NCBI RefSeq assembly: GCF_044324875.1
Contig: NZ_CP172185.1
Origin: Escherichia coli
GTDB taxonomy: Bacteria; Pseudomonadota; Gammaproteobacteria; Enterobacterales; Enterobacteriaceae
Strand: one strand, 5' to 3'
DNA: 64,000 nt
The position numbers were made by a program, and so were the translations under genes. This document shows, in pieces, positions 1 to 41,572 of this stretch. Every line of letters starts with the position of its first letter. Within the stretch, counting starts at the first letter, position 1. The notes under the pieces are model-generated. The model was not told where the DNA came from. It saw nothing but the letters and a program-made list of their open reading frames with translations, and did no database searches.

Positions 1-301
1 CATCGCGCAGCCACGCTTCTCCGTGGGGAATATCGACCACGATTTGATGATCTTTGAGGATGCGGTCCATGACTGCTTTCGCGTAAAGGTTGATTTCAGA
101 AGCGCCAATATGCAGCTCGATGAAACCTTTTTCATCCGGCGTCGAAGCCATTGAGAACGGACGTTTGTCGCGCTCATCCATCACTACCATCAAATACTGA
201 CCAGCACGAAAAGAAAAGGCCGCGTCTGGTACGATTCGGACACGATATACGGTATCCGTGATAGCTTCTACCGAGGTCACTTTACAGCTTAAGGTTGTCA
301 T
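1..301 (-). CDS. fre: NAD(P)H-flavin reductase Fre, N-terminal part (gene continues beyond window start)
   Basis: Minus-strand translation from the ATG at ~301 reads MTTLSCKVTSVEAITDTVYRVRIVPDAAFSFRAGQYLMVVMDERDKRPFSMASTP..., which I recognise as Fre; it lies downstream of ubiD as in K-12. Confidence 0.8.
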   Translation of the reverse strand, partial: MTTLSCKVTSVEAITDTVYRVRIVPDAAFSFRAGQYLMVVMDERDKRPFSMASTPDEKGFIELHIGASEINLYAKAVMDRILKDHQIVVDIPHGEAWLRD

Positions 302-4961: not shown

Positions 4962-7204
<2,243 letters not shown>

Positions 7205-11862: not shown

Positions 11863-12996
11863 ATGAGTGATATTATTTACCTGAACATAACCGGAGAACA
11901 ACAAGGATGTATTTCCTCTCGTTGTGGAACGAGCGCATCAATAGGTAATCGCTGGCAGATTGGCCATGAAGATGAAATCTTCGCGTTCTCGCTCTCTAAT
12001 AGTATTACGAATACAGGCAAAGGGTCACAATTGCATGGCCTTAGTTTCTGTAAATTGATTGACAAAAGCTCCCCGTTACTTATTAACGCTATTAACAATA
12101 ACGAGCAGTTGTTCATGGAGTTTGACTTCTATCGGATCAATAGATTTGGTCGATGGGAGAAATATTACAACATTCAACTTCGCGGCGCGCTCTTATCAGC
12201 AATCAATCACCTGTTTACTGAGAACAATCTGGATACAGAAACCATCACTGTCAGTTATGAATATATACTCTCCAGGCATCTGATTGCTAATACTGAATTT
12301 AGTTATTTGGCATTTCCCGATAACTACAACCGTCTGTTTATACCACGGCCAAAAACTAAAGATGATAATGGCCTCAAAACACTCAATAGTAAAGCGGTTG
12401 GCAGACTGCTTGCTGCTGGCGGCATATACAATGGGAATATCGAAGGATTCAGGGAAACAGCAAACAAGTTGGGAGGAGATGCACCTGCTGGTTACGATCA
12501 AGTTATGGATAACAAAGGGTTACTCATCGCTGGTGCTTCAATAGTTGCTGGAGTTGTTCTGGGAAGAATGAGATTCCCTGATTTGGAATCACTTGAGCAT
12601 TTCGGAGCCAGAGGAGCAGTATCAGGAAGACCATTTAATCCCGACCTTGCCGGTGGTCCAATTGAAAACCTGACGATAGATGGCGTAACAATCAACAGGG
12701 AAGGTATCGCTATTGTTGAAAAGCATATCTCCAGATTTGATCATGATCCAGCTAATGATGTAATGATTTCAAGGCTAAAGAAAATAGCAAATAAAGAATT
12801 GCTTCCTGAAAAATACGATCTGAACTACTATACTCATGAATGTCGCGAGTATCAGCGTTATTGTAATTTAGGATGGGAAACAGGTGAACCGAAAGGTTTA
12901 GATGGATATGAATTATGGAATAATGTACATACTGCAACTCTAGAAGACTTTAAAATTAAAGATACTGACTTATTTCATCCGGATGCAAAAAAATGA
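11863..12996 (+). CDS. Hcp (T6SS tube protein) fused to a C-terminal extension of unknown function; candidate Hcp-ET type VI effector
   Basis: Residues ~1-160 (MSDIIYLNITGEQQGCISSRCGTSASIGNRWQIGHEDEIFAFSL...LHGLSFCKLIDKSSPLLINAINNNEQLFMEFDFYRIN...EKYYNIQLRGALLSAI) align by eye with enterobacterial Hcp (Y-I-x-I-x-G-x-Q-G, S-I-G-N-x-x-Q-x-GHEDEI, DKSSPLL, FxFYR...E-Y-Y). Residues ~165-377 form an extra domain containing a hydrophobic stretch (LLIAGASIVAGVVLG). Visibly AT-rich; absent from the K-12 ysgA-metE interval as I recall it. Confidence 0.7.
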   Translation: MSDIIYLNITGEQQGCISSRCGTSASIGNRWQIGHEDEIFAFSLSNSITNTGKGSQLHGLSFCKLIDKSSPLLINAINNNEQLFMEFDFYRINRFGRWEKYYNIQLRGALLSAINHLFTENNLDTETITVSYEYILSRHLIANTEFSYLAFPDNYNRLFIPRPKTKDDNGLKTLNSKAVGRLLAAGGIYNGNIEGFRETANKLGGDAPAGYDQVMDNKGLLIAGASIVAGVVLGRMRFPDLESLEHFGARGAVSGRPFNPDLAGGPIENLTIDGVTINREGIAIVEKHISRFDHDPANDVMISRLKKIANKELLPEKYDLNYYTHECREYQRYCNLGWETGEPKGLDGYELWNNVHTATLEDFKIKDTDLFHPDAKK

Positions 12997-13250
12997 CGAT
13001 TACGATAGTTGAATTTAACGTGCTGAAAGTTATGGCTGAGAAAGATATTGACTGGAGCTGGATGGTGCTGGATCGTACTTTAGCTATACGAAATATTCCA
13101 GGATTTGGCAACGTAGCGAATATCGTAACAAAGCTGGTTAATCATGGGTTGGTTGATATCGTAAATGGTGAGGGCAACTCTAGACCACGCTACAGAGTTT
13201 CTCAATATGGATTGAATCTTATCAAAGAACAACAAGACAACCTCTTCTGA
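12993..13250 (+). CDS. Small protein (85 aa), candidate cognate immunity protein or small winged-helix-like protein
   Basis: ATG overlaps the TGA stop of the Hcp fusion (ATGA), implying translational coupling. No signal peptide. Paralogous to the next ORF. Confidence 0.5.
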   Translation: MTITIVEFNVLKVMAEKDIDWSWMVLDRTLAIRNIPGFGNVANIVTKLVNHGLVDIVNGEGNSRPRYRVSQYGLNLIKEQQDNLF

Positions 13251-13309
13251 TCCAGCCATTACAGGAGCATGATTTACATTGTGATCTTTCAATAAGATAC
13301 TCATCAATT

Positions 13310-13570
13310 TTGGTACAGAATATCGTGATCACTAAAAATGAACTTAACGTGCTGAACGTTATGACTGAGAAAGATATAAACTGGAACTGGATGAATCTCG
13401 ATCGCACACTATCCATAAGGCAAATTCCAGGATTCGGGAATGTTGTTAACATTGTTAACAAATTAGCTAACGAAGGTTTGGTTATTATTGAGGATAGCGG
13501 GAATAAGTCTATGCCTCACTACCACGTTAGTGAAAAGGGATACAATCTCGTGCAACGTGAGAATAAATAA
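13310..13570 (+). CDS. Small protein (86 aa), tandem paralog of the preceding ORF (second immunity candidate)
   Basis: Roughly half the residues match the upstream 85-aa ORF (NVLKVM-EKDI-W-WM-LDRTL-IR-IPGFGNV-NIV-KL-N-GLV). Start codon uncertain: the track start appears to be non-ATG. Confidence 0.45.
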   Translation: MVQNIVITKNELNVLNVMTEKDINWNWMNLDRTLSIRQIPGFGNVVNIVNKLANEGLVIIEDSGNKSMPHYHVSEKGYNLVQRENK

Positions 13571-35413: not shown

Positions 35414-35492
35414 TATGGATTGCCTGTAAAGTTCATCGCTTTCTGCTTTCTATCATCGCAGGAGAAGGCGTAAAAGCAAGCGTTTAGCGACT

Positions 35493-35668
35493 CTTTATGA
35501 AGTCTGAAAAGTGAGGAAATGCTGCGAGTATAACGCTTACACGTGGCGATTTATGTTTTGCTGGTAGTTTCGTGATCAACACCTCGTGCCAGGATGGCTT
35601 TATGCACTATCGCAATGTGGTTTGTTTGTTGTCTTGTTCGTTGTTTTTATCGTCGGCATGGGGCTTTT
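35493..35668 (+). repeat. Leader-module repeat copy 1 (5' UTR plus truncated signal-peptide ORF remnant)
   Basis: ctttatgaagtctgaaaagtgaggaaatgctgcgag...tagtttcgtgatcaacacctcgtgccaggatggctttatgcactatcgcaatgtggtttgtttgttgtcttgttcgttgtttttatcgtcggcatgggg is near-identical to the 5' ends of the genes at ~36578 and ~39461, but runs into a stop after ~22 codons (…SSAWGF*). Confidence 0.6.
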
Positions 35669-35761
35669 AAAAGAGTGGCGCACCATGCAATTTCGTTGTC
35701 TGACCTTAGTCGCCAGTGACATACAGCTTTGCCAACCTGGTGATAAGAGGGAAAAAATCTG

Positions 35762-36316
35762 ATGGGGCTATTTACCCAACTGGAAAAATTTGACCAAAAG
35801 CTTACGCGCGGTTATGCCCGCTGGGGGCGCTGGGTATGGCGGACGTTAATTGTCGTTCCAATACTGGTCGTATTGTGGAATATAGGGCAGGCAGTATGGG
35901 GAGGACCAAGAGGTGGAGTGATTCTGGAAATCCACAGTGAAATTGACCGCCCGATACTGGGATTCAGTGTTAACGGCGTGGCGGGCGCGAATGCTTTTGC
36001 GAATGGTGGCGGTTCAATCACCTGTTGCGGTGATGTCAGTGGGGATACGGCAGAGGTTATCTGGACATTAAGTACTACTCGTACACAGTATAATGCTGGA
36101 ATGCGTCTGGAGAAACGCAATATGACGTTACCTCTCCCAAAAAGAGAATGGGGAGAAAATTATCTGCACGTGCATTTTATGCCTGGCGATAAAGTGTTGC
36201 TGGGGTGGAGTAAAGATTCTTTTTCTCCGTATGAAGATCTTCACAACGGGGGGTACAAGACCCGCGTTCGGCAGGATGTGAAAGATAAACTTTATGGCAC
36301 AGGAAAAATGAATTGA
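35762..36316 (+). CDS. Hypothetical membrane-anchored protein (184 aa)
   Basis: ORF with a predicted N-terminal TM/signal-anchor (WVWRTLIVVPILVVLWNIGQAVWG) and a Gly-rich GGGSITCCGD motif; preceded by a plausible RBS (agaggg). Function unknown. Confidence 0.45.
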   Translation: MGLFTQLEKFDQKLTRGYARWGRWVWRTLIVVPILVVLWNIGQAVWGGPRGGVILEIHSEIDRPILGFSVNGVAGANAFANGGGSITCCGDVSGDTAEVIWTLSTTRTQYNAGMRLEKRNMTLPLPKREWGENYLHVHFMPGDKVLLGWSKDSFSPYEDLHNGGYKTRVRQDVKDKLYGTGKMN

Positions 36317-36577
36317 TAGATTTCTATAAAAATCACGTTCGGCAGAAAGCGTAATAATGTGGCGAATGTTAGATACCCGTGGTGGAACCTGGGTACAACT
36401 CGTGAAAGACAATAAAGAAGGCAACGGGGGGCGGAATCCCACCTTGCCTCCCTTCCAGGGGTCAATCCGGAATATTTTTATGCTATTAGCCGTACTATGG
36501 GGCAGTTCCGGGATTGTATTTATATCGTGAATGAAAACATCACCTTTATTCCAGCAACTATCAGAAAATAGCGATGA

Positions 36578-36750
36578 CCTTTATGGATTCTGAAAAGTGA
36601 CGATTTGCTGCGAGAGTTACGCTTACTTGTGAGGATTTATGTTCTGCTGGTAGTTTCGTGATCGGCACCTCACGCCAGGATGGCTTTATGCACTTTCGCA
36701 ATGTGGTTTGTTTGTTGTCTTGTTCGTTGTTCTTATCGCCTGCCTGGGGA
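36578..36750 (+). repeat. Leader-module repeat copy 2 (intact; forms the 5' UTR and signal peptide of the 490-aa gene)
   Basis: cctttatggattctgaaaagtgacgatttgctgcgagagttacgcttacttgtgaggatttatgttctgctggtagtttcgtgatcggcacctcacgccaggatggctttatgcactttcgc...; direct repeat of copy 1. Confidence 0.6.
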
Positions 36751-38130
36751 TGTAAGCTTTCATCTGTGGATCCCAATGAGTATCAGCAACAGGGAAAAGG
36801 CGTGGTGTACCTGCGCCCTAATCAAAACACCAATCTTTCGCTACCGAACGTGAATTACAAGCGCCTGCGTCGGTTGGCGAATTTGTTAATTGACCCAGCG
36901 ACACTGGAAGATTGGGAGGAAATACCGCCGTTAACCGATCTGTCTACTGATTATGATGTGAGGGGCGCAAATGCCTGGTATCCTCATTACTCCTGGCATA
37001 GCGATGGTCGCTATATTATTTACGCTGGCAAGATAGTGCAAAATCCTGCGGGTGCACCGCCGGTTGACGTCACGTCATTCAAGGCTTGGGGCGATTTTGC
37101 CGCTGATAAAAATAGCCTCTATTTCAGAGGCGAACGCACGGATGACAATGGTGGTGACAAGCCTTTAGATAGCAAAACACTGCATCAGATGAATTTACCG
37201 CCGCCATGGGAACCTGACGTCCTCGGGCTGATATTGCGTGATGCTAACTTCCTGTATATCAACGGGCATCGTATTGCTGAGACCAATAGTTTCCGCGTGC
37301 TGGCGCAAAAGTCCTGGGATAAGCACGGAAAATTTTCCATGAAGTTTAGCTGCATTCGCAAACCATTCGGCCCCTGGGATACGCTGGCTCGTACACAGAC
37401 GAAGATTATGCTCAACGGCGAACAACTGGATGCCGACCCGGATACCTTCACCGTTGTGCGCTGGATACCTGAAGCATTAATAAGCTGGCGAGATAAAAAC
37501 GGCTTTCACCGAAAGGTACTGGATCAATATGCCCTGGACAGCAATGAGGAATATAGCTGCGGTAGTTTCAATGTAAAGGAACACCGCGTCACCTGGCGTA
37601 GTAGCTTCCCGGGTAAGGGAGCAGAATGCCAACAAGAAGAGATTCCCGGCCTCGATCCTGAACAGTTTCACCCAATTAGCGATGCTGTCGCGCAATATCA
37701 GGACAAGCTGTACGTCATCGAAACAACGCCATTTGACGAGCTCAAGCTGAATATTGTTACGCTTGATGACCCGAAACTGATTATTAATAAGCGCTTCAAC
37801 GCCGGGAAGCGTCACGGTTACTTGCTCACAAGAAAGGGAGACGAGTTTGGGGATTCTGGTTTACAGGTGTTTGAATCCGCCGGGCCGCTCATTTTATTTG
37901 ATAACCACATCCCCAGCGAACGGGAAGCGCATCAGGTTAGCAGCAACCCTTATATCCAAAAATGGTTAGCCCGCGACGACAAATATGTTTATCGCTTCGA
38001 TGGCATGCAGCTCTGGCGCTATCACACCGCAGATCCCCGAGCCGTGCGCGTCGTGAACGATCAACTCGATGACAAAATTAACGGTGATGGCGAGTTTATA
38101 CCCACTCCGCGCGATGAGGCTAAAAAATGA
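36658..38130 (+). CDS. Secreted repeat protein, paralog A (DKNYY-like motifs; possible lipoprotein)
   Basis: 490-aa ORF; N-terminus M(I/H)...FRNVVCLLSCSLFLSPAWGC looks like a signal peptide ending in Cys. Recurrent motifs KNSLYFRGERTDDNGG, NFLYINGHR, DKLYVIETTPF and DDKYVYRFDG resemble the DKNYY family. Start may be the ATG at ~36688. Confidence 0.6.
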   Translation: MIGTSRQDGFMHFRNVVCLLSCSLFLSPAWGCKLSSVDPNEYQQQGKGVVYLRPNQNTNLSLPNVNYKRLRRLANLLIDPATLEDWEEIPPLTDLSTDYDVRGANAWYPHYSWHSDGRYIIYAGKIVQNPAGAPPVDVTSFKAWGDFAADKNSLYFRGERTDDNGGDKPLDSKTLHQMNLPPPWEPDVLGLILRDANFLYINGHRIAETNSFRVLAQKSWDKHGKFSMKFSCIRKPFGPWDTLARTQTKIMLNGEQLDADPDTFTVVRWIPEALISWRDKNGFHRKVLDQYALDSNEEYSCGSFNVKEHRVTWRSSFPGKGAECQQEEIPGLDPEQFHPISDAVAQYQDKLYVIETTPFDELKLNIVTLDDPKLIINKRFNAGKRHGYLLTRKGDEFGDSGLQVFESAGPLILFDNHIPSEREAHQVSSNPYIQKWLARDDKYVYRFDGMQLWRYHTADPRAVRVVNDQLDDKINGDGEFIPTPRDEAKK

Positions 38131-39437
38131 AAGTGATGAAAAAAAGTATCTCACTGGCGCTCATCCTGTTGGGGTACACGGTGGCAATTCCGGCCGTCCA
38201 GGCTGAAGGGTACGAATACTACTCTAACCAGGGAGCCCTGGTTTACGGTTCAAACTTCGGGGGACAAAAGAAAATCATTGCCAAGTTTACGGGAATTAAC
38301 AGACGCGATTTGTACCCTGTGGAAAATATCTCTGGCGAGCAGGAACGATATATTATCGAAGATGAAGTCACCACAATTAAAGAGGAGTACCACTGGATAA
38401 CGGACGGTCACGTCATTCTCTGGCGAGGGAAAATCGTGAGTAATCCTCCCGGTACGCCAATGGTCGATGTTGCCAGCTTTAAGGCTCTGGGCCGCTTCGC
38501 CGTCGATAAATACAGTCTCTATTTTGACGGTCAGCGCACCGAAAGCAATAGCGGTGCTTCGAAGGTGGACCTGGCAACCCTAAAAGCTATCGAAGATAAC
38601 AGCAGCACGCTGGTTGACCGACATAACCTTTATTTATTGGGACGCAGGCAGGCCAGTAGCGACGATTTCAGCGTACTACAAAGTAAATTGTGGGGGGATA
38701 TCGAGCGGTTCCGCCCACGCAATGAAGGGGCTACCTCCCGCGACCTGCTTATTCGTCATCGCCAGGATGTGTTTCTCAATGGTCAGCGCATTGCAGACGT
38801 TGATGCTGACACCTTTCACATCATTCGATGGATCCCCAATTCATTATTGGTCTACCGCGACAAACATGGTGAGCACCGTTACGCCTATGGCAACCCGGCC
38901 GGAAAAATGGCAACGACCGATGATGCGAATTCGTTTGAAATCGGTGAAAAAACCGTCCGCTGGCGCAGGCAACTCGCGCGGGATGACGCCTGGCCCACGC
39001 AACTCTCGTGGGATGTCATATGGGGGGCCTGGCAGGATATTCCCAATGTTGATCCGGAACAGTTCCATCTGATCACTGACCGCATCGCGCAGTATCAGGA
39101 TCGTCTGTATATCATCAAACTGTCGCCAGTTGGCGAAGACCAGCTTAACGTTATCACCCTGGATACCCCTGATTTAGTGGTTGATCACGTCTTCAATGGT
39201 GGGAAAAAGCACATTTATATTATCAAGGACAGAGCGTGGGTGCAGGATGTTCATGTGATTGCTACCCACGGTCCACTCACCATGGCTGAGAGTTTCGCCT
39301 GGGACGATCGCTATGTATATGCCTGGCGGGGCCAGCGACCTTCCAGAACTGAATCGCCATGTCCGGAGCAAACCGTTGAGCAGGATGATGGCATAGTCAT
39401 TAAGACCGAAGCATCAGAGTGCCACCGCACGCCGTAA
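38127..39437 (+). CDS. Secreted repeat protein, paralog B (DKNYY-like motifs; Sec signal peptide)
   Basis: 436-aa ORF whose ATG overlaps the stop of paralog A (ATGA). Classical signal peptide MKVMKKSISLALILLGYTVAIPAVQA; motifs KYSLYFDGQRTESNSG, HNLYLLGRR, DRLYIIKLSPVGEDQLNVITLD and DDRYVYAWRGQ; C-terminus ...KTEASECHRTP. Confidence 0.6.
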   Translation: MKVMKKSISLALILLGYTVAIPAVQAEGYEYYSNQGALVYGSNFGGQKKIIAKFTGINRRDLYPVENISGEQERYIIEDEVTTIKEEYHWITDGHVILWRGKIVSNPPGTPMVDVASFKALGRFAVDKYSLYFDGQRTESNSGASKVDLATLKAIEDNSSTLVDRHNLYLLGRRQASSDDFSVLQSKLWGDIERFRPRNEGATSRDLLIRHRQDVFLNGQRIADVDADTFHIIRWIPNSLLVYRDKHGEHRYAYGNPAGKMATTDDANSFEIGEKTVRWRRQLARDDAWPTQLSWDVIWGAWQDIPNVDPEQFHLITDRIAQYQDRLYIIKLSPVGEDQLNVITLDTPDLVVDHVFNGGKKHIYIIKDRAWVQDVHVIATHGPLTMAESFAWDDRYVYAWRGQRPSRTESPCPEQTVEQDDGIVIKTEASECHRTP

Positions 39438-39460
39438 AATGGGTCATTATTTTTAACGGG

Positions 39461-39555
39461 TAGTTTCATGATCAACACCTCGCGCCAGGATGGCTTTATG
39501 CACTATCGCAATGTGGTTTGTTTGTTGTCTTGTTCATTGTTTTTATCGTCGGCAT
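39461..39555 (+). repeat. Leader-module repeat copy 3 (partial; 5' end of the 685-aa gene)
   Basis: tagtttcatgatcaacacctcgcgccaggatggctttatgcactatcgcaatgtggtttgtttgttgtcttgttcattgtttttatcgtcggcatgggg matches copies 1 and 2. Confidence 0.6.
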
Positions 39556-41525
39556 GGGGATGTCGGCTTTCCGCGCCTGAACATAATATTTACCAGAAAC
39601 AGGGAAAAGGCGTGGTATACCTGCGCCCTTATAAAGAAACAAATCTTTCTCTTCCTGACGTGAATTACAAAAGTTTGCGCCGTTTACCCAATTTATTAAT
39701 AGACCCGACAACACTAGACGAATGGGATAAAGAACCGCCTCTGACTGATTTGACAACCGACTACCTCTATGAGGGCGCACAGGCCTGGTATCCTCATTAT
39801 TCCTGGCATAGCGATGGTCGCAATATCCTCTACGCGGGTGAAGTTGTGCAAAACCCTCCCGGCACACCTCCCGTCGATGTCGCCTCGTTCAAGGCATGGG
39901 GTGATTTTGCCGCAGATAAACACAGTCTCTATTTTGAAGGCAAGCGCACCGATGACAATGGCGGAGAAAATAGTCTAGATATCAAAACGCTGCATCAGGT
40001 GAAATTCCGTTCCCCCTGGAAACCTGACTTACTGGGGCTGATATTACGTGACGCTAATTTCTTGTATATCAATGGGCATCGCCTCGCTGACCCCGAGAGT
40101 TTCCGTGTGCTGGCGCAAAAGTCCTGGGATCGGCGAGGAAAGTTTTCCGCCGAGTTTAACCCCTGCGTTGCCGTACCATTTGGCCCCTGGGATACGTTAG
40201 CCCGTACACGGACCAAAATCATAATCAATGGCGAACAGCTTACAGCCGACCCAGAGACATTTACTGTCGTGCGCTGGATGCCCAGTTCGTTATTAACCTG
40301 GCGTGATAAAAACGGGCTGCAGCGTAAAGTGCTGAATCAGGGAAATCTGGACAAAGATAGGGCAAATAGCTGTGCAACGTTCAATTTACAGGAACACTTT
40401 GTTTCATGGCGCAAAGGGCCAGAATGTCAGCAAGAAGTCCTACCCGGCCTCGATCCAGAACAATTTCACCCTCTTAGTAATACCGTTGCTCAGTATCAGG
40501 ACAAGCTGTACACCATCAAAAAAACGGAATTTGGCGAAAATAGGCTAGATATCGTCACACTGGATAATCCTGGTTTGGTGATAGATAAACGCTTTAACGC
40601 GGGAAGAACTCACGGCTATTTATTGACCAAATTACCAGCTGATGGTGAAGAAGAAGATGGCCTCCAGGTATTCGAGTCTTCCGGGCCGCTTATCCTGATG
40701 GATTATCGTGTTCCTGACGAGCATGAGGCTCACCTTAGCGATAGCCCCCATTACAAGAAATGGTATGCACACGACGATCGTTATGTTTACGCATTCGATG
40801 GCTCACAGCTTTGGCGCTACCCAACTCCCAATACCAAAGCCGTGCGGGTGAAATGGAAAACCAAAGATTCAGGATATGGCTATTGGGCAAACTACCGTAG
40901 TGGTGAGCTTGACGGCAGACTTCTTGAGGATGGTGCGTTTATTCCAACGGGAATCCCCTATAACTCATCCGTTAACATTGCTCAATATTCTGATGGCGAA
41001 GGCTCTTTTCTCGTCGGCGAAACCGATGTTAGCTGGCGTAAGCTTCGCTCTACAGACCAGCAATGGAGTCAATGGGAGAAACTCCCCGATATTGACCCGA
41101 AAGCATTTCATCCCATCACCGATCGTGTCGCGCAGTACAAAAATCATCTGTACATTGCGAAATTGTCTCCTTTTGGTGAAGACACCCTGGAGATAATAAC
41201 GCTCGACTCTTCTGCACCTTTCCTGAAACAACGAATTAACGCCGGGAAAGGCCATGGTTACTTTATGCGCTCTTCCCGTTTACGCGATGATATTCAAATT
41301 TTTGCTATTGATGGACCATTGAAAACCACCGAACGTTTCGCTTATGACAATCGCTATGTTTATACCTGGATCGGTAGCCAACTTTATCGAACCGCATCGC
41401 CCTGTCCGGCCAGGACACGTAATCTGGATCAGAACATGTTTTCATCCAATGATGACATCATCATCCTGAAGACGGAGGAAGAGTGCCACAAAACACCAGA
41501 CATTGAGCAAACTTTGAAGCCCTGA
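39468..41525 (+). CDS. Secreted repeat protein, paralog C (mosaic: A-like body plus B-like C-terminal module)
   Basis: 685-aa ORF. The first ~440 aa are collinear with paralog A (e.g. YPHYSWHSDGR, FKAWGDFAADK, PWDTLARTRTKI); the last ~230 aa resemble the C-terminal half of paralog B (DRVAQYKNHLYIAKLSPFGEDTLEIITLD, DNRYVYTWIGSQ, ...KTEEECHKTP). Confidence 0.6.
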   Translation: MINTSRQDGFMHYRNVVCLLSCSLFLSSAWGCRLSAPEHNIYQKQGKGVVYLRPYKETNLSLPDVNYKSLRRLPNLLIDPTTLDEWDKEPPLTDLTTDYLYEGAQAWYPHYSWHSDGRNILYAGEVVQNPPGTPPVDVASFKAWGDFAADKHSLYFEGKRTDDNGGENSLDIKTLHQVKFRSPWKPDLLGLILRDANFLYINGHRLADPESFRVLAQKSWDRRGKFSAEFNPCVAVPFGPWDTLARTRTKIIINGEQLTADPETFTVVRWMPSSLLTWRDKNGLQRKVLNQGNLDKDRANSCATFNLQEHFVSWRKGPECQQEVLPGLDPEQFHPLSNTVAQYQDKLYTIKKTEFGENRLDIVTLDNPGLVIDKRFNAGRTHGYLLTKLPADGEEEDGLQVFESSGPLILMDYRVPDEHEAHLSDSPHYKKWYAHDDRYVYAFDGSQLWRYPTPNTKAVRVKWKTKDSGYGYWANYRSGELDGRLLEDGAFIPTGIPYNSSVNIAQYSDGEGSFLVGETDVSWRKLRSTDQQWSQWEKLPDIDPKAFHPITDRVAQYKNHLYIAKLSPFGEDTLEIITLDSSAPFLKQRINAGKGHGYFMRSSRLRDDIQIFAIDGPLKTTERFAYDNRYVYTWIGSQLYRTASPCPARTRNLDQNMFSSNDDIIILKTEEECHKTPDIEQTLKP

Positions 41526-41572
41526 CCCCATGCCGCTATACTGCCGCCATCACTTAAAAACAGGATACAACA

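Follow-up and report, generated by a model that had tools for sequence, protein, structure and literature searches.

An intact orphan DUF3304 gene between lptM and cyaY of Escherichia coli, probably an immunity gene retained from a type VI secretion effector cassette

The variable island between lptM (yifL) and cyaY of Escherichia coli carries an open reading frame (ORF) for a small membrane protein next to genes for secreted DKNYY paralogs, which raises the question of whether this protein serves the paralogs or came to the site with a role of its own. The island was analysed in a stretch of 64,000 nucleotides (the window) from contig NZ_CP172185.1 of RefSeq assembly GCF_044324875.1, in which the chromosomal order is uvrD, yigB, xerC, yigA, dapF, lptM, the variable island, cyaY and cyaA. 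The ORF exists exactly as the original prediction had described it, with an ATG start and 184 aa (Table 1), and it lies where it had been placed, with the remnant of a DKNYY leader to its left and paralog A to its right. The plausible ribosome-binding site (RBS) that had been claimed is a Shine-Dalgarno-like AAGAGGG about 10 nt 5' of the ATG, which is also kept in the copy linked to a type VI secretion system (T6SS). The gene had been called unannotated, but RefSeq/PGAP lists its product as WP_000522548.1, a DUF3304 domain-containing protein.

Table 1. Coordinates of the orphan gene, its protein and its flanks in the window, and of an ORF that recurs in related loci (L010, EC9; L046, MLI108K2; L002, ST131-type)
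Feature	Position	Strand	Description
Left copy of duplicated DKNYY 5' region	35493..35663	+	About 79 nt upstream plus first codons; 171 nt, 87% identical to 36579-36749
DKNYY leader remnant ORF	35572-35670	+	32 codons; VINTSCQDGFMHYRNVVCLLSCSLFLSSAWGF, then stop
Fragment from inside DUF4123 adaptor gene	35663..35690	+	28 nt; 92.9% identity to L010 5297-5324 and L002 11789-11816
End of DUF4123 gene and DUF4123-DUF3304 spacer	35685..35761	+	Last ~35 nt of the gene; spacer with RBS
DUF3304 orphan gene, tli-type	35762..36316	+	ATG start; 184 aa; intact ORF
Predicted layout of orphan protein	residues 1-27; ~28-47; 53-150; 160-184		Basic cytoplasmic N-terminus; TM helix; periplasmic beta-sandwich; low-confidence tail
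Variable patch in CDS	36071..36130	+	CDS nt 310-369, aa 104-121; two haplotypes
5' remnant of Tle1-like effector gene	36357..36434	+	First 26 codons; former 3' neighbour of the putative immunity gene
Segment between effector remnant and right DKNYY copy	36435..36578	+	144 nt; in other orphan-bearing islands at 78.6-97.9% identity
Right copy of duplicated DKNYY 5' region	36579..36749	+	Leads into intact paralog A; ORF from 36658, RefSeq start 36688
Multi-TM ORF behind effector, related loci	L003:5289-5783; L046:9418-9954; L047:9468-9956

Profile searches assigned the protein to a family. The match of the window protein itself to Pfam DUF3304 (PF11745) is marginal, at 21.6 bits against a cut-off of 22 (E = 3e-4, profile positions 6-95 of 97); the EC9 allele, 93% identical to it, scores 22.7 bits, and 43 of the 45 aligned family members match the profile, with a best E of 1.4e-12. 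On the strength of these matches the protein is placed in DUF3304, a known family and the domain of Tli1 immunity proteins, whose targets are the Tle1 phospholipase effectors of T6SS (PMC13133936). It stays well below the cut-off of the NCBIfam model Tli1a_fam (NF053804), at 19.4 bits against 110; the T6SS-linked alleles score 21-24 bits and the copies of Pseudomonas chlororaphis 29-40 bits on the same model. The homologues found at E <= 1e-3 number 419, are mostly from Enterobacterales, 165-185 aa long and 55-85% identical, and reduce to 78 representatives when clustered at 50% identity. Given these homologues and dN/dS values of 0.06-0.23 against the window allele, the ORF is far beyond chance.

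The only hydrophobic segment of the protein, with a mean Kyte-Doolittle value of 1.9, is the TM helix of Table 1, in line with the single N-terminal anchor that had been claimed, and the residues ahead of it include six K/R and two D/E. Because a basic N-terminus precedes a single TM helix, the topology is predicted to be that of an N-in/C-out signal anchor. A lipoprotein signal peptide or lipobox is absent from the window protein, which has the basic N-terminus and the TM helix in its place; these two elements recur in nearly all close relatives and in most distant ones, and a plausible lipoprotein-type lipobox occurs in 3 of 32 distant representatives of the wider clade. The Gly/Cys motif GGGSITCCGD, to which attention had been drawn, occupies residues 82-91, and its G84, C88 and C89 are almost invariant in the 45-member family alignment. 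An AlphaFold2 model built on that alignment (pLDDT 89) has a helix at residues 2-46, followed by a seven-stranded β-sandwich and the tail; the sandwich of about 100 residues expected of DUF3304 is present in the model, which agrees with the description of the DUF3304 domain of Tli1a as a β-sandwich (PMC13133936). Searched by sequence against the PDB, the ORF had no meaningful match and no solved relative, and fold searches of the PDB returned generic sandwiches alone. Across Enterobacterales the conservation of the N-terminus (residues 1-27, window 35762-35842; MGxFxxLExxDxxxxRGYARWGxWxW) equals that of the periplasmic domain, a level that, in the aligned sequences, is unusual for a plain signal anchor.

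Relatives of the protein are encoded in T6SS clusters, in a recurrent gene context. The E. coli T6SS-1 proteins of EC9, FDAARGOS_1258 and MLI108K2 are 93%, 96% and 93% identical to the window protein in amino acids, and around their genes the order is vgrG, DUF4123 adaptor, DUF3304 and Tle1-like effector. Relatives from Salmonella and from E. coli of the L002/ST131 type are 85% and 67% identical, respectively, and the gene for the latter belongs to a T6SS-1 cluster, where a DUF4123 gene precedes it and that of a Tle1-domain effector follows, with stop and start codons that overlap. VgrG, DUF4123, one or two DUF3304 copies and a Tle1-like effector likewise follow one another in Salmonella (two tandem copies of 184 aa), Citrobacter farmeri and Enterobacter cloacae. 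When species-representative genomes were scanned with the closer family alignment, 32 loci were obtained; wherever the downstream sequence sufficed, one to five tandem DUF3304 copies stood directly 5' of a Tle1-like gene, and VgrG and DUF4123 were usually found upstream of them. The sampled loci are from Enterobacterales, plus one from Pseudomonas (P. chlororaphis, with four DUF3304 copies). The effectors beside the E. coli and Salmonella relatives score 29.5-45.3 bits against Pfam T6SS_Tle1-like_cat (cut-off 27), and the DUF4123 protein has a weak match to NCBIfam Tla1. At the EC9 locus the second tandem DUF3304 copy (L010:6141-6617) is a truncated pseudogene and both copies are intact in Salmonella, so immunity copy number shifts even within T6SS loci. 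A conserved multi-TM ORF of about 165-178 aa (Table 1) follows the 649-655 aa type of effector in T6SS loci of Salmonella and E. coli; it has no Pfam match and could encode a second immunity protein or an accessory.

The original prediction had proposed that the protein is an accessory or partner of the secreted DKNYY paralogs, whether as anchor, chaperone or immunity-like factor. Adjacency, a shared strand and probably a common promoter region in about 1000 E. coli genomes are consistent with a protein that serves these neighbouring lipoproteins as membrane anchor, chaperone or immunity factor, but co-occurrence with DKNYY genes does not extend beyond the E. coli island. Among the 32 related loci in other genomes, DKNYY neighbours occur in L011 alone, an E. 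coli-like contig, and no DKNYY homologue was found in the T6SS loci examined; strain 8178, for its part, has DKNYY paralogs at the same site with no DUF3304 gene. The proposal had been made to depend on conservation of the ORF together with the paralog cluster across genomes; no such conservation is seen, and the partner link therefore fails on its own terms. As will be seen from the flanks, the gene came in a T6SS cassette that truncated a DKNYY gene, and we regard a partnership with the paralogs as highly improbable. The immunity-like character that had been suggested does hold in kind, through membership in DUF3304 and alleles that stand 5' of Tle1-like effector genes; DKNYY as its partner does not. 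By its flanks and its distribution, the orphan is a later insertion into a DKNYY gene, outside the DKNYY system, and in annotation it should not be counted as part of that system.

The lptM-cyaY site (window 35414-41572; L044, L045, L048 and L049) is itself highly variable and holds anything from a DKNYY stub to three paralogs, with frameshifts or stops in the DKNYY genes of several strains. Only a DKNYY stub of 179 nt is present in K-12-like strains, and the full island of the window is matched over at least 80% in only 52 of 5426 genomes. L011 (JAIJJM010000270.1), which had been assigned to a 'Collinsella sp.' MAG, is a 4-kb contig with DKNYY genes and a DUF3304 gene at 98% identity, almost certainly from E. 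coli and mis-binned. A literature search on DKNYY found nothing relevant.

The origin of the orphan can be read from what surrounds it. To its left stands the 5' end of a DKNYY gene, cut exactly at the lipobox Cys codon; this copy can be aligned as far as that codon with the starts of paralogs A and C, and its counterpart in strain 8178 is the beginning of the first DKNYY gene. Beyond the fragment from inside the adaptor gene, positions 35685-36323 of the window align with the EC9 locus (L010 5509-6148) at 92.3% DNA identity. The DUF4123 CDS of L010 ends at 5543, and since the homology starts 78 nt 5' of the ATG, it takes in the end of the DUF4123 gene as well as the spacer. To the right, positions 36317-36434 are 85.6% identical in nucleotides to the intergenic spacer and effector start of the MLI108K2 locus (L046 7420-7537), and the stub ORF at 36357, MWRMLDTRGGTWVQLVKDNKEGNGGR, is identical to effector residues 1-26, MWGMLDTGGGIRAQLAEDNKVGNCGR, at 17 of 26 positions (BLASTP, E = 2e-9), with which tblastn agrees. 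The segment that follows the effector remnant had no match by blastn and tblastx among the T6SS loci examined, and no other genes of the module were found in the 64-kb window. An adjacent Tle1/DUF2235 effector gene, a feature of Tli1, is reduced to the 26-codon stub beside the orphan, while it is present beside the 93-96% identical alleles and the homologues elsewhere.

Because stubs of adaptor and effector flank the gene and a DKNYY 5' end lies on either side, it follows that a DKNYY gene received a T6SS segment of adaptor, immunity and effector genes, of which only the immunity gene was later kept whole. The alignments show a capture origin from a T6SS-1 block: a DUF4123-tli-tle block from a T6SS-1 vgrG island landed in the first DKNYY gene between lptM and cyaY, right behind its signal peptide, after which adaptor and toxin were deleted down to stubs of 28-78 nt, with the immunity gene left intact.

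Such a history could also have left a non-functional relic, the last undegraded piece of a decaying T6SS effector cassette, which confers nothing on its host. The deletion stubs of the old neighbours on both sides fit that description, as do the splitting of the orphan gene by IS3 in one strain and a promoter and terminator scan at the locus that stayed at chance level and detected no promoter of the orphan's own. However, the alleles from different strains (WP_000522548 in the window, WP_000522551 and WP_000522552) are all three intact at 184 aa, the locus is present in about 1000 genomes, the neighbours have shrunk to 28-78 nt, and the RBS is conserved. Against the window allele, dN/dS is 0.07-0.18 for the other two orphans, 0.06-0.07 for Salmonella and at most 0.23 (about 0.2 for the EC9 T6SS-linked copy); it is 0.40 between WP_000522551 and WP_000522552, which differ mainly by a patch swap. 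The CDS of the window and of strain WAT are separated by 12 synonymous and 3 non-synonymous differences (dN 0.007), and the adjacent effector stub and spacer are 90.7% identical; a dN/dS of 0.07 between two orphan alleles beside a non-coding stub that has diverged by 9% argues against decay. We therefore consider a mere relic unlikely, keeping in mind that the low dN/dS could partly reflect alleles imported from T6SS-linked copies by gene conversion.

Gene conversion is indicated within the gene itself. Between the orphans of the window and of strain 98221, 21 of 32 nucleotide differences fall at nt 310-369 of the CDS, with the downstream flank 100% and the upstream flank 98% identical, and differences packed into a patch between near-identical flanks point to conversion of a short tract over these nucleotides. 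The two haplotypes of the patch, STTRTQYNAG...M121 and DMTHEQYLKG...K121, are each found in orphan and in T6SS-linked copies. The patch lies on an exposed helix and loop, and orphan alleles that are otherwise near-identical segregate for both haplotypes. From this pattern, residues 104-121 are a candidate determinant of effector specificity.

The distribution of the orphan was compared with that of the T6SS weapon in complete E. coli genomes. With a 1.3-kb query centred on the orphan and coverage of at least 80%, the gene was found at lptM-cyaY in about 1074 of 5426 genomes. A 4.2-kb query from EC9, comprising the adaptor, both tli copies and the effector, gave matches at 1701 places in 1673 genomes, so at most 28 genomes hold both the orphan and a T6SS-linked copy. 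The full EC9-type module is present in only 42 genomes, a T6SS-linked DUF4123-DUF3304 pair of another type (e.g. that of ST131) in about 600, and the orphan segment of about 615 bp alone in about 1000; the orphan-only matches all start at query position 788-790, the same point as the junction at 35685. In BEC1-S17-ESBL-09, which is identical to the window at this locus, the orphan is the sole match to the 4.2-kb module, with no match to adaptor or effector. The gene is accordingly what is understood by orphan immunity: an intact homologue with no cognate effector beside it, in a genome that lacks the effector. The raw genome counts, which ignore kinship, are suggestive of a depletion of double carriers.

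The effectors paired with this DUF3304 clade lack a GxSxG motif (L010:7004-8950, L046:7460-9409, L003:3265-5232, L002:12603-14471 and L039:7967-9769). They align to the solved Tle1 structures 9j3f_A (E = 1.7e-17) and 4o5p_A, with the nucleophile Ser replaced by Asp (GYDTGA or GFDLGA where Tle1 reads GFSRGA) and the His of the HSD motif replaced by Ser (PGCSEDVGGG vs PGVHSDVGGG in Tle1). With both catalytic residues replaced, the partner effectors may not be canonical serine phospholipases.

In P. aeruginosa, B. thailandensis and K. pneumoniae, Tle1 is neutralised by DUF3304 proteins (PMC13133936; PMC9550808), and E. coli itself has known examples of orphan immunity genes (PMC6730261). Cumulatively, we think it likely that the ORF represents a DUF3304/Tli1-type immunity gene left as an orphan, whose product is anchored in the inner membrane and shields the cell, through its periplasmic sandwich, from the Tle1-like effector of a rival. 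The protein would be held in the inner membrane by its N-terminal signal-anchor helix, its N-terminus remaining on the cytoplasmic side, as the predicted topology suggests, and would present the sandwich of about 100 residues in the periplasm. When the T6SS of a rival E. coli, Salmonella or other enterobacterium injects a Tle1-like effector of the DUF2235 fold into that compartment, the sandwich would bind and neutralise it, by analogy with Tli1-Tle1 pairs, and strains without the weapon would thereby be protected. The gene probably uses the promoter of the truncated upstream DKNYY gene (left copy in Table 1) for its transcription, and the variable patch probably tunes which effector allele is neutralised. 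Besides the profile scores of the window protein below the cut-offs, the IS3 insertion and the possible import of alleles noted above, two points count against this immunity reading: the characterised Tli1 proteins are outer-membrane lipoproteins, whereas the orphan is predicted to be signal-anchored, and the toxicity of the partner effectors is putative, as the canonical Ser and the His of HSD are missing from their sequences. For the same reason, the activity that the orphan would block remains putative.

The conserved N-terminus also bears on another role, in which the protein is an accessory factor for the T6SS effector (in loading, activation or membrane targeting) and not its antidote, has its cytoplasmic N-terminus as a possible contact for effector or adaptor, and is useless or re-purposed as an orphan. 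The first 27 residues are indeed more conserved than a mere anchor would require, and there is a precedent in Tli of E. cloacae, an immunity protein of a different family that also activates its effector from the cytoplasm. However, one to five tandem copies and persistence as an orphan that lacks both effector and adaptor typify immunity genes and not chaperones, the loading role is already filled by the DUF4123 adaptor, the domain is predicted to face the periplasm, and the family is linked to proven Tli1 immunity; such a role therefore appears quite improbable to us. Starting again from the immunity reading, we tentatively put forward a wider proposal, which is rather doubtful as a whole: TM-anchored DUF3304 proteins and Asp/Ser effectors of the Tle1 fold might form an effector-immunity family of their own, apart from Tle1-Tli1, with the orphan at lptM-cyaY a 'shield without sword' under selection in strains that lack the T6SS-1 module, the haplotypes of residues 104-121 setting specificity, and the conserved cytoplasmic N-terminus serving, perhaps, a second role in producer cells.

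In P. aeruginosa, Tli1a (PA3291) is encoded in a vgrG4a-tla1-tli1b-tli1a-tle1 island, and in K. pneumoniae three tli1 genes, for Tli1KP, lie 5' of tle1 and behind a DUF4123 adaptor gene; in both systems the Tle1 immunity proteins are of DUF3304 (PMC13133936; PMC9550808; PMC12469244). The orphan shares with these Tli1 proteins the DUF3304 β-sandwich with its GGG..CC motif region, the ancestral order of vgrG, DUF4123, one or more tli and a DUF2235/Tle1-like effector, the occurrence of tli in tandem and, by prediction, exposure to the periplasm. It differs from them in having a TM anchor and a conserved cytoplasmic stretch instead of a lipoprotein signal peptide, in its score far below the Tli1a cut-off, in partner effectors whose catalytic Ser and His positions hold Asp and Ser, and in the lack of an adjacent effector. 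Two further pairs were compared: Tle/Tli of E. cloacae was rejected as a match, being a Tle6 with an ankyrin-repeat immunity protein of a different family, and Tli1/Tle1 of EAEC was set apart, as its Tli1 is an outer-membrane lipoprotein, its Tle1 binds the C-terminal extension of VgrG1 directly and two tli genes lie near tle1, whereas the module considered here is DUF4123-dependent.

Among orphan immunity genes, those of V. cholerae, of E. coli vgrG islands (PMC6730261) and of the acquired interbacterial defence arrays of Bacteroidales resemble the window gene in being intact homologues without a cognate effector. Like them, it outnumbers the effector, with about 1074 genomes against 42 that have the EC9-type module. 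Unlike them, it lies outside any T6SS cluster, inside a DKNYY array at lptM-cyaY, and is a single gene and not part of an array with a recombinase, with the stubs of adaptor and toxin still recognisable. The E. coli T6SS-1 DUF4123-DUF3304-DUF2235 modules (ST131, PMC10711316; EC9, MLI108K2 and FDAARGOS_1258) are its direct source, with 92% DNA identity over 640 bp that include the upstream spacer and with both haplotypes of the patch; those copies form operons with vgrG, adaptor and effector, whereas the copy in the window has been separated from such genes and follows a DKNYY 5' end.

The family is known and the gene was already annotated; what the locus adds is a history of capture that has been preserved well, together with some family traits that are out of the ordinary. 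As a fossil record, it shows with unusual clarity the retention of an immunity gene through the loss of toxin and adaptor. Should the orphan prove active, one E. coli strain in five would resist a class of T6SS toxin without having the weapon itself, which bears on competition between strains and on colonisation resistance in the gut. The orphan also draws attention to Tle1-like effectors of an unstudied branch, whose active site is non-canonical, and could be a convenient genetic probe for them.

A separate T6SS item lies elsewhere in the window. Positions 11863-13570 begin with the gene for a 377-aa Hcp (TssD), of which residues 6-135 are covered by Pfam T6SS_HCP and which bears a C-terminal extension of about 240 aa; it is followed by paralogous ORFs of 85 and 86 aa (12993-13250 and 13310-13570), and a dienelactone hydrolase gene and metE flank the whole. 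This stretch, which 857 of 5426 E. coli genomes contain, has the look of a module in which an Hcp-extended toxin is paired with candidate immunity genes in tandem.
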